Assembly: GCA_963761725.1 (NCBI GenBank)
Contig: CAVXHP010000006.1
Span: forward strand, 573,534 to 637,533
Direction of reading: 5' to 3'
DNA length: 64,000 nt
From: an uncultured Cytophagales bacterium
GTDB taxonomy: Bacteria > Bacteroidota > Bacteroidia > Cytophagales > Bernardetiaceae
Below are positions 30,307 to 32,948 of this stretch, one piece after another. Below the pieces are notes generated by a model. The model saw only the letters and a program-made list of their open reading frames with translations, made no database searches and had not been told where the DNA came from. Within the stretch, counting starts at the first letter, position 1, and each line of letters opens with the position of its first letter. The position numbers were made by a program, and so were the translations under genes.

Positions 30307-30738
30307 CTATCTCCAAAATCTCTTCCAAATATTTTGAGAAGTTTCTAAGAATTTTTCAGTGGCTTTAAGTTGCTCTGTGCTGCTTTCTGTAATATCAGAA
30401 AGAAGAGGAATAGAACGAAGCATCTCGCTTCCTTTTACTGTTTCATCAATTGCTTTTGACCATTGAACCATAGTAGATTCTTCTTCTTTTGCATCAGGAA
30501 CCAAATTATTGATATGATTTGGAGCTATATTTCTTTTTTCTGTTTTTACCTCAACGGTTGTATCAATTTTTCTTTCTGATTTACTTTCCTGAGCTAGAAT
30601 TTCAGTTTCAATAATTTGATGAGGATTTTCACTAACGAACTCTTCTTTTGTATAAGATGAAGTTTTTGTAGCGACTGGAGAAGTTTCTTGTTCTTTCAAA
30701 AAAGCATCTAAATCTGCAAGTGTACTATTTTTTGCCAT
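30307..30738 (-). CDS. hypothetical acidic, low-complexity protein with a Trp-rich C-terminus (NIWKRFWR), co-directional with and downstream of parA
   Basis: 143-aa ORF located 119 bp downstream of the ParA gene. Confidence 0.35.
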   Translation of the reverse strand: MAKNSTLADLDAFLKEQETSPVATKTSSYTKEEFVSENPHQIIETEILAQESKSERKIDTTVEVKTEKRNIAPNHINNLVPDAKEEESTMVQWSKAIDETVKGSEMLRSIPLLSDITESSTEQLKATEKFLETSQNIWKRFWR

Positions 30739-30857
30739 AATGATATAAAATGGGACTAAATAAATGGATTTGGATTGATTGAACTAAATTTTAGTTTAGT
30801 TAAATGCTTAATTGTGTGTTAGTTGTGAAATGACTAATTGCCTATTCTGTATATCTT

Positions 30858-31487
30858 TTATTTCAACAAAGATACAATATTTTTTGCAATTTCTTTATAT
30901 TCCTCAATAGGACTCAATGTAGAAAATTCTGCCATCTTGTTTTTTGTTACTACAAAAGTAGGAATAATAGTAGCTCCTAAGCTAGAAAGTGCAGTATTGA
31001 CTGTATTAGGATTTGTCCTGTTATGGATTCTGTTGGGAAGAATAGCAATTTTGAGATTCTTATTGATTTCTAAGGCAGGTTTCAGGTCTTGTAATGTTTG
31101 ATAGGCTACCAACAAATCATTTTGAGAAAGACTTGTCGGAACAATTACCAAATCAGATTCCAAACATAGTTTTCGGATAGCTTCATCGGTTGTTTTTCCT
31201 GCACTATCCACCAAAATATAATCGTATTTTTTATCTTTCTTGTATTTTTTTACTTGTGAAATAATAGTTTCATCGGTCAGACCCAAAATAGGAAAAGGAG
31301 CGTCTTTTTCAGTTATTTTCTTTTTGAAAAGTTCCATTTTTCGAAGTGTTGAGATGGTATAGTTTGTATCGGTTTCGATAAGCAAAACTCGTTTTTTTTG
31401 GCTGGCAAGTGTTGTGGCAAGATGCGTAATGTTGGTGGTTTTGCCTGTTCCACCTTTTCGGCTGATGAAAGAAATTATCATAATCAA
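30858..31487 (-). CDS. ParA/MinD-family P-loop ATPase (small, orphan)
   Basis: 209 aa. Deviant Walker A 'SRKGGTGKTT' and Walker B region 'YDYILVDSAG'. Confidence 0.8.
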   Translation of the reverse strand: MIMIISFISRKGGTGKTTNITHLATTLASQKKRVLLIETDTNYTISTLRKMELFKKKITEKDAPFPILGLTDETIISQVKKYKKDKKYDYILVDSAGKTTDEAIRKLCLESDLVIVPTSLSQNDLLVAYQTLQDLKPALEINKNLKIAILPNRIHNRTNPNTVNTALSSLGATIIPTFVVTKNKMAEFSTLSPIEEYKEIAKNIVSLLK

Positions 31488-31652
31488 AATAGAAAGTAAA
31501 AATGAGTTTTTGGAAGAATTAAAAACAAAAATAACGATTAGTTGATAAATAATTTATTCTATTCTCATTTTATTAGTTTGAGTATTTTATTTCCATCAAA
31601 AATAAGTATATTGCTTTTCAAAGATTATAATTCATTTTTCTACCAAAAAAGT

Positions 31653-32948
31653 ATGCAGCAGATTGACTCAAGTTATGATTTAATAGATACTTTACAAATC
31701 AAAAAAACTGATTTTGAAGTCTCACACAAACAATTTTTGGTCTTATGTGGAAAACAACAATTTTATTGTGGTCTTTTGATTAAGGAAATTTTGGTAGGAT
31801 TAAATGCTACTGATTCGCTTGAAGCCATTCGTTTCAGACTCACCGATTATCCAGCTTACAAAGAACTAGCGATTGAAGATGTAGCAAAAATAATTGATGA
31901 GAAAATAATACCTTTAGGCATTCTGGTAGATAAAAAAGAAAAGGGGAAAATAAAACAAGAAATTACTTACGATGCAGATTCTATAAAAACTCAAAAAACA
32001 TTATTAAACGAATCCCAGACGCATTTTTTGGCTTCTATCTTCAAAAATTTTTATAAAAAATGGGTAGTAATTCTTTTTGTTTTGATGGGTCTTTTTGCTC
32101 ATATTCTTTACCTTTCTTCTCACTCTGTTTTTGGAGAAAAATCTAAAATATGGGCAGAGGCTTCTGCTTTAGAATATTTATTGATTTACTTTCTAATAAT
32201 TCTCATTTTTGTTTTCCATGAAGTAGGTCATGCATCGGCAGCTTTGCATTACAAAATTCGTACACCCAGAATTGGATATGGATTTTATTTAGTATATCCT
32301 GTCTTTTTTACTCAAATTAGTGAAGCGTGGAAACTTCAATCTAAAAAGAGAATGGTCATAAATTTGGGAGGAATTTATTTTCAGTGGATTGCAGGAAGTG
32401 TTTTTATTTTATTAGATTATTTCAATATTGCTTCTACAAATCTTTGGTCAGGAATTGTAGTCATTAATTTTGTTCGTCTTCTTTATTCCTTTGTTCCTTT
32501 TATGAAAGCAGATGGCTATTGGATTTTTAGTGATGGTTTTGGACTAACTAATTTACGCAAAAAATCAAATCAGTTTTTGGCAGCTATCTTTAAATCTTTT
32601 TCAATTGAAAAGGCTCGTCAGATTACACCAACAAAGAAACAGTTTTATGCTCTTTCTTTCTTTTCATTCGGTACAGTTATTTTCTTTAGTTTCTGGTTTT
32701 CTGTCCTGACAATTATAATCTGGAAATTTTCGCCTATGTTACCTAGTATTCTGGTTTCATTTTATGAAAAATGGCAAGCTGCAACACTTGTTTCTCAATA
32801 TATAAAAGTAGTTCTTCAATCTCTTTTGCTTTGTGTTACACTCTTAGGAGTAACCATTTTTATTATCAGAATGGTTAGTTTGATTCGTTTTGCTATTCAG
32901 TTTTTATTTAAAAAGGAAGTCAAAGGGTTAGATATGAAGACTGCTTAA
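31653..32948 (+). CDS. polytopic membrane zinc metalloprotease-like protein (site-2-protease/M50-like HExxH in a TM helix) with a ~170-aa N-terminal cytoplasmic domain
   Basis: 'FHEVGHASAALHY' within a hydrophobic helix and a downstream 'PFMKADGYW' (LDG-like) motif. The ORF track begins at 31542, but a start at MQQIDSS (31653) is more plausible. Confidence 0.45.
   Translation: MQQIDSSYDLIDTLQIKKTDFEVSHKQFLVLCGKQQFYCGLLIKEILVGLNATDSLEAIRFRLTDYPAYKELAIEDVAKIIDEKIIPLGILVDKKEKGKIKQEITYDADSIKTQKTLLNESQTHFLASIFKNFYKKWVVILFVLMGLFAHILYLSSHSVFGEKSKIWAEASALEYLLIYFLIILIFVFHEVGHASAALHYKIRTPRIGYGFYLVYPVFFTQISEAWKLQSKKRMVINLGGIYFQWIAGSVFILLDYFNIASTNLWSGIVVINFVRLLYSFVPFMKADGYWIFSDGFGLTNLRKKSNQFLAAIFKSFSIEKARQITPTKKQFYALSFFSFGTVIFFSFWFSVLTIIIWKFSPMLPSILVSFYEKWQAATLVSQYIKVVLQSLLLCVTLLGVTIFIIRMVSLIRFAIQFLFKKEVKGLDMKTA

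Follow-up and report, generated by a model that had tools for sequence, protein, structure and literature searches.

Background

ATPases of the ParA/MinD family are the main means by which large cargos are organised in bacteria, and many of them are orphans whose partners are too divergent to be recognised. ParG, the partner of ParF, acts via its N-terminal tail, and PomX activates its ATPase by means of an N-terminal peptide that contains basic residues. Partners of ParA/MinD proteins generally bind the ATPase through a positively charged N-terminus, the remainder of the protein binding the cargo (10.1101/2022.06.09.495121). In the McdA/McdB system, McdA binding requires the first 20 residues of McdB, which also suffice for it (PMC12139897), and the association of McdB with its cargo is mediated by C-terminal Trp motifs (10.1101/2023.11.21.568049). 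Here we describe a pair of genes, encoding a small ParA and a 143-aa acidic protein, in a 64,000-nt stretch of a Bernardetia (Cytophagales) chromosome (GenBank assembly GCA_963761725.1, contig CAVXHP010000006.1, positions 573,534 to 637,533; hereafter the window, G+C ~31%), and we consider it probable, if not secure, that the two form a cognate ParA/partner positioning module.

The region of interest (30307-32948) comprises three genes: that of the ParA and that of the acidic protein, both on the minus strand, and a divergent gene for an HExxH membrane protease on the plus strand. It had been singled out in an earlier reading of the DNA (the original prediction), which described a small ParA with the motif SRKGGTGKTT, followed on the same strand by a 143-aa acidic protein ending in NIWKRFWR; both are present as described.

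A conserved ParA/partner gene pair

Relatives of the window ParA form 1,257 clusters at E <= 1e-10. They were scanned in one genome per species, which yielded 231 loci; the best 80 of the 231 were used and, together with the window, make up 81 sources, 79 of which have a callable ParA open reading frame (ORF). The sampled loci come from Ohtaekwangia, Chryseolinea, Dawidia, Fulvivirga, Cyclobacteriaceae, Roseivirgaceae, Flammeovirgaceae, Microscillaceae and Parvicellaceae/Flavobacteriales. That the ParA gene and the 143-aa gene would prove to be a conserved, syntenic pair, as had been suggested, is decisively borne out, a gene of 84-223 aa lying directly downstream of ParA in 78 of the 79 callable loci, across Cytophagales and Flavobacteriales. 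The two genes are arranged as an operon, with ParA and partner overlapping by 4 nt in 57 of the 78 loci; a spacer of more than 30 nt occurs only in Bernardetia, where it measures 106-132 nt, and in one Microscillaceae locus. One locus alone (L066) has no downstream partner ORF bearing the N-terminal motif described below; the gene may truly have been lost there, or a frameshift or an assembly error may hide it.

All 78 partners have a common layout that consists of an N-terminal peptide, a linker of variable length and charge (net charge -10 to +24) and a small helical C-terminal domain of ~65 aa (net charge -6 to +5, acidic in Bernardetia). The partners of different lineages are ~20-25% identical overall, and their N-terminal 16 residues are almost invariant (M-[SA]-K-K-K-N-T-L-x-D-L-x-x-F-L-K; consensus of the 78 starts, M-S-K-K-K-N-T-L-K-D-L-D-E-F-L-K-Q-Q). 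A stretch rich in Lys/Arg, and after it T-L-x-D-L-x-x-[FY]-L-K, is nearly invariant across two orders, with three Leu residues that never vary and Asp, F/Y, T/P and K/R positions that nearly never do. When the sources were translated in six frames (0.98 Mb), the motif was found once per source and always at the start of the partner. Given that the ParA proteins themselves are 55-61% identical between Cytophagales families and to Flavobacteriales members, the preservation of some 16 N-terminal residues in proteins otherwise 20-25% identical is the signature of a short motif that binds a slowly evolving protein. At the other end, a C-terminal Trp is present in 65 of the 78 partners, 64 of which carry two Trp within their last 15 residues; most lineages have the tail NWKEAIRxYW, and Bernardetia has IWKKFW.

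The linkers are acidic or Pro/Ala-rich outside Microscillaceae. In the partners of that family (L073:751-1422; P0165-P0175), the linker is a long A/K/T-rich AKKT repeat resembling histone H1/HC2, with a charge of about +24, which implies, by its composition, a nonspecific affinity for DNA in that lineage only. One Parvicellaceae partner of 129 aa (P0150) is named 'glutamyl-tRNA reductase' in two sources; the match to TIGR01035 has an E-value of 0.08, and the name is almost certainly a mis-annotation. A real hemA adjoins the locus in Bernardetia, which is a coincidence with that name.

The partner encoded in the window has a predicted isoelectric point of ~5.0 and Trp residues at positions 138 and 142. 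A direct sequence search with this protein gave 28 matches, 27 of them full-length orthologs with 66-81% identity, all from Bernardetia, and a profile of these 27 proteins found 3 matches among 1.8 billion representatives. Across five Bernardetia loci the ratio of nonsynonymous to synonymous substitution rates (dN/dS) of the partner gene is 0.17-0.28, so that the gene is under purifying selection; the ORF is a real gene, in view of both the orthologs and this ratio. Searches of Pfam, NCBIfam, PADLOC, PHROGs and PDB gave no match for the partner, PDB profile searches returned nothing but de novo helical designs, and no paper on this partner family in Bacteroidota was found in the literature. 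The family is previously undescribed, although its mechanism, as proposed below, is not surprising. Synteny thus reveals a family of partners that is missed by sequence searches, HMMER matches being confined to one genus.

In the alignment of the Bernardetia partners, residues 1-17 are invariant, residues 30-47 form a second motif, the K/E/T-rich middle is rich in insertions and deletions, and the C-terminal ~55 residues are conserved, with the terminus NIWK[KR]FW. Among the variants of other lineages, those of Parvicellaceae and Microscillaceae give the best alignment with this protein, and in that alignment (A4) P39 and W93 are invariant, the internal W93 being the one Trp to be so. An AlphaFold2 (AF2) model places helices at residues 5-18, 89-107 and 111-142, separated by a disordered centre, with predicted local distance difference test (pLDDT) values of 65-82 for the C-terminal helices. 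The original prediction of a disordered partner consequently holds for the low-confidence linker (about residues 48-87) but not for the conserved helix at residues 5-18, the motif at residues 30-47 or the helical part at residues 89-142.

The ATPase exceeds the gathering cut-offs of the Pfam models VirC1, AAA_31, CbiA and MipZ, the match to the MipZ model being weak and partial, and its nearest solved structure is that of ParF from TP228, a type Ib plasmid protein (E 1e-16). Throughout the family the Walker A, Walker A' and Walker B residues do not vary; in the window ParA, whose motif set is intact, they include the sequence ETD at residues 36-38 and an Asp at residue 92. Judged by its sequence, the protein genuinely belongs to the ParA/MinD family. 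It ends with the fold and has no C-terminal extension that could act as a MinD-type membrane helix. Its dN/dS across the same five Bernardetia loci is 0.04-0.08. The NCBIfam equivalog for the plasmid 'ParA family partition ATPase' (ParA_partition, NF041546) scores 103.4 bits against a cut-off of 180, and the best matches in 72,556 plasmids are 29-33% identical. The latter values mark a distinct chromosomal clade with no recent acquisition from a plasmid, and the pair is not a mobile plasmid system. The module is chromosomal, and its wide spread and its lineage-specific housekeeping contexts suggest that it is vertically inherited in Cytophagales and some Flavobacteriales.

A slowly evolving ParA next to a protein composed of a conserved N-terminal peptide, a spacer and a divergent C-terminal domain is the layout of ParA/MinD partners, and it is for this reason that we read the pair as a positioning module, which probably positions a cargo. 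By analogy with the described systems, ATP-bound ParA dimers would bind a matrix, most likely the nucleoid. The N-terminal, Lys-containing amphipathic peptide of the partner (residues 1-18) would dock on the ParA dimer and stimulate ATP hydrolysis and release, while the flexible linker would space this peptide from the helical C-terminal domain with its Trp-rich terminal helix. That domain, in turn, may self-associate, bind the cargo, or both, and the resulting gradient of ParA would position or partition the cargo by a diffusion-ratchet.

Some of the observations weigh against the module as we describe it. The Bernardetia partner has one Lys before the helix (MAKNS), as opposed to KKK elsewhere, and the models of the partner are of low confidence, with mean pLDDT values of 57 and 62. 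The terminal Trp, to which the original prediction drew attention, is indeed found in the window and in most partners; it is absent in 13 of the 78, including those of Parvicellaceae and Microscillaceae, and the Trp pair is therefore no universal determinant of cargo. Finally, when 753 neighbouring ORFs were clustered across the loci, no conserved neighbour or cargo candidate emerged, just housekeeping synteny specific to each lineage.

These flanking genes differ from one lineage to the next. Those for an E2 acyltransferase, cinA and a metB-like (cystathionine gamma-synthase-like) protein flank the pair in 49-51 loci; lepA and metF do so in Parvicellaceae, the M50-like protease gene and hemA in Bernardetia, and malate dehydrogenase lies beside the pair in a Microscillaceae genome. 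As the flanks vary by lineage, the ParA-partner pair alone is conserved. In 51 loci (within L006-L080), the gene for the 2-oxoacid dehydrogenase E2 (lipoyl acyltransferase) immediately precedes ParA, at a distance of ~114 bp and in the same orientation, with cinA upstream and the cystathionine gamma-synthase-like gene downstream. This adjacency probably reflects no more than synteny within the lineage; an E2 core is a very large assembly, and a speculative lead would be that it is the cargo.

Tentatively, and with distinctly less confidence than we place in the module as such, we propose that the pair represents a new and widespread system of Bacteroidota, in which a ParF-like chromosomal ParA and a new family of adaptors, made of a KKKNTLxDLxxFLK peptide, a disordered spacer and a Trp-tailed domain, might distribute an unrecognised cargo other than DNA, such as a protein assembly, a granule or an envelope machine. 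If true, this would be a kind of positioning so far undescribed in these bacteria; in the literature, no ParA-based positioning beyond chromosome segregation was found described for Bacteroidota. The N-terminal motif is sharply defined and easily mutated, and the pair occurs in at least 78 sampled genomes, which turns a hypothetical protein into a testable adaptor whose C-terminal domain provides a handle for finding the cargo in Bacteroidota.

Alternative explanations

The main rival explanation, which we regard as unlikely, is that the locus is a domesticated type Ib (ParF/ParG-like) system for DNA segregation, in which the partner would be a centromere-binding protein that attaches by its C-terminal domain to a site on the chromosome, the DNA region there being segregated by ParA. 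The closest solved relative of the ATPase is, after all, ParF; an N-terminal tail followed by a small C-terminal domain is the layout of ParG and omega; and the linker of the Microscillaceae partners is basic and histone H1-like. For the C-terminal domain, the comparison with ribbon-helix-helix (RHH) proteins is equivocal. In hhalign, run against sequences of Arc, Mnt, CopG, ParG and omega, partner helices 1-2 line up in register with helices A-B of the RHH proteins Arc and Mnt (P ~0.005), but the probability is 7.6% and the β-strand is left unaligned. Likewise, the top Foldseek matches of the domain are Arc-type RHH proteins, but they are non-significant and amount to no fold match, and no RHH, ParG or ParB family was matched in Pfam or in PDB profile searches. 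The charge of the domain, moreover, is not consistently basic, and the best plasmid ParA proteins are only about 30% identical.

A segregation system would be at odds, too, with the DNA around the operon. No repeat arrays of the kind that make up iterated centromeres or operators were found in the window between 30100 and 31800, and the 160 nt upstream of parA in 22 other loci contain no iterated or palindromic repeats other than terminator hairpins. The original prediction had noted the lack of ParB/parS hallmarks, and none emerged from these scans or from family searches of the partner, which gave no Pfam or NCBIfam match to a ParB/Srx N-terminal CTPase domain or a helix-turn-helix.

Just downstream of the partner gene, a 27-nt element (TGTAGGGAAAAG..CTTTTCCTA) is present in the window as two copies inverted relative to each other (30168-30194 and 30244-30270), each with an 8-bp hairpin stem, and a third, degenerate copy with one mismatch (31291-31310) lies within the ParA coding sequence. 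The palindromic core GGAAAAG-N6-CTTTTCC occurs three times in the 64 kb, all at this locus, for an expectation of 0.02. Considered as a conserved, parS-like centromere, it was rejected, since the other Bernardetia loci lack it at the corresponding site and carry single copies elsewhere (L001:5262, L005:11418), away from the par locus. The element may be a REP-like (repetitive extragenic palindromic) sequence or a terminator hairpin.

Less probable still is a module that would connect ParA with the membrane or with a membrane complex, for instance to place the division site or an envelope machine as MipZ, PomXYZ or MinDE systems do, with NIWKRFWR as a membrane-targeting amphipathic helix and, in Bernardetia, conceivably the neighbouring protease as its object. 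The composition of the tail (I, W and F with K/R) would resemble that of the membrane-targeting helices of FtsA and MinD, the two Trp share one face of the helix in the 64 partners that have them, and the protease adjoins the pair in all six Bernardetia loci. Yet the tail is not conserved in the Parvicellaceae or Microscillaceae partners and the models make it the last part of a long helix belonging to the folded domain; the protease, for its part, is missing from all non-Bernardetia neighbourhoods, and the clustering of the 753 ORFs showed no division or envelope genes consistently linked to the pair.

That the 143-aa ORF is a fast-evolving orphan, downstream of ParA by chance, is highly improbable and disfavoured: the restriction of its HMMER-level homologs to Bernardetia would fit, as would a promoter of its own, which the long Bernardetia spacer with its conserved block (see below) makes possible, but the shared N-terminal motif and three-part layout recur at an identical position in 78 of 79 loci from two orders, the overlap with ParA is found in 57 of them, and selection on the gene is purifying.

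The locus in the window and the neighbouring protease

The features of the locus are collected in Table 1.

Table 1. Features of the ParA/partner locus and its surroundings, in window coordinates
Feature	Position	Strand	Remarks
Small ParA/MinD-family ATPase, ParF-like (type Ib-like)	30858..31481	-	207 aa from ATG; Pfam, ParF, relatives
Deviant Walker A SRKGGTGKTT with signature Lys, aa 7-16	31434..31463	-	Read from the sequence; invariant in ParA family alignment A2
Partner (adaptor-like) protein, new family	30307..30738	-	143 aa; no family match; position kept in 78/79 loci; dN/dS
N-terminal peptide MAKNSTLADLDAFLKEQE, aa 1-18, putative ParA-binding/activating helix	30685..30738	-	Conservation; AF2 helix aa 5-18
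Second conserved short motif TKEEFVSENPHQIIETEI, aa 30-47	30598..30651	-	Bernardetia, Parvicellaceae and Microscillaceae partners; P39 invariant
Variable low-complexity K/E/T-rich linker, aa 48-87, predicted disordered	30478..30597	-	Indel-rich; pLDDT <50
C-terminal helical domain, aa 88-143, including the terminal Trp-rich helix NIWKRFWR (30310-30333)	30310..30477	-	AF2, W93, Trp counts
ParA-partner spacer, 119 nt, Bernardetia-specific	30739..30857	-	Alignment of five Bernardetia loci
Divergent intergenic region ParA/protease, 171 bp	31482..31652	.	Partly conserved among Bernardetia loci; no iterated repeats
HExxH intramembrane metalloprotease, M50/S2P-like (site-2 protease), daptide-protease-like	31653..32948	+	431 aa; ~6 hydrophobic segments; neighbour only

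Within the spacer between ParA and the partner, a block of ~30 nt, CACAACTAACACACAAT[CT]AAG[CT]ATTTA (~30801-30830, minus strand), is conserved in Bernardetia, where it may serve the partner gene as an internal promoter or operator. The spacer showed no signal of an RNA structure (fold z = -0.76), and there is no Rfam match in the window.

The genes that flank the pair in the window are housekeeping genes: DUF4890-like, LolA-like, ScpB and RluB-like genes on one side, HemA and a DUF3298 protein on the other. The RluB-type pseudouridine synthase-like ORF (395 aa; 26348-27535, minus strand) has an N-terminal extension of ~160 aa that is rich in K, E, R and N and of very low complexity.

The divergent protease gene most likely starts at the ATG at 31653, its Bernardetia orthologs measuring 425-435 aa. 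The original prediction had recognised a membrane protein with an HEVGH and a PF..DG motif, and these are in place, HEVGH at residue 189 (32217-32231), at the end of transmembrane (TM) segment 2, and PFMKADG at residue 282 (32496-32516); its details needed small corrections, the protein being one residue longer than the 430 given, the soluble N-terminal part an uncharacterised domain of ~137 aa in place of a cytoplasmic domain of 170 aa, and the divergent spacer 6 bp longer than the 165 bp reported. An HExxH motif with a downstream PxxxxDG motif is what characterises M50/S2P proteins, and these residues mark the protease as a genuine member of that superfamily. Its match to the NCBIfam model daptide_HExxH (NF041824) is significant but partial (E 4e-26; 91.9 bits, cut-off 300), that to Pfam M50 (PF02163) reaches 18.9 and lies below the gathering cut-off of 27.2, and no relative was found in PDB by sequence. 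With site-2/M50 proteases and daptide-type HExxH proteases it has in common an HExxH within or at the end of a TM helix and the PxxxxDG motif, whereas it differs from them in the ~137-aa N-terminal domain, in the lack of a PDZ domain, and in that no genes for ribosomally synthesised and post-translationally modified peptides (RiPPs) lie nearby.

The protease is the divergent neighbour of the pair in all six Bernardetia-clade loci (the window, L002-L005 and L081, Bernardetia litoralis DSM 6794), and no comparable HExxH gene of 425-435 aa stands at that position in any non-Bernardetia locus scanned. The functional coupling that had been envisaged between the ParA pair and the protease is unsupported because the adjacency is limited to Bernardetia, and the protease is probably unrelated to the pair, a neighbour specific to that clade. 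In B. litoralis DSM 6794 an extra 142-aa gene without a Pfam match (L081:5174-5602) is inserted between hemA and the protease; the window lacks it, the corresponding gap (32949-33181) being 233 bp.

Comparison with known ParA/partner systems

The partner appears to fall outside the McdB, ParG/omega and ParB families and to resemble them in layout only. With PomXYZ and MipZ, the pair has in common a chromosomal ParA-like ATPase that works with a partner other than ParB, but no homology to PomX, PomY or the partners of MipZ was detected, and there is no linkage to division genes.

With ParF/ParG of TP228, the resemblance lies in a ParA of ~207 aa, a small partner whose N-terminal tail is a plausible activator of the ATPase, and an operon in which the ATPase gene comes first and that of the partner second. 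Nevertheless, the system described here is chromosomal, with a spread and stable contexts that suggest vertical inheritance; its ParA is distant, plasmid ParA proteins being at most 33% identical; the C-terminal domain of the partner is not detectably RHH; and there are no centromere-like repeats beside the operon.

McdA/McdB is the system to which the locus was originally compared. Both consist of two genes, for a ParA-type ATPase and for a small, compositionally biased and partly disordered adaptor with basic residues at its N-terminus and a Trp motif at its extreme C-terminus (W138 and W142 in the window). The comparison is an analogy only: no sequence similarity of the partner to McdB was detected, no carboxysome or other bacterial microcompartment (BMC) genes lie near the pair in the neighbourhoods examined, and the hosts are heterotrophic Bacteroidota. 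Further differences are that the signature Lys of the deviant Walker A motif is retained in the window ParA, that the C-terminal Trp is not universal in the partner family, and that the partner has a folded helical C-terminal domain and a sharp N-terminal motif, not merely a charged and disordered N-terminus. The family would thus provide a further, sequence-independent example of the McdB-like design, in which a basic N-terminal peptide, a disordered linker and an aromatic C-terminal tail are combined in one small adaptor.

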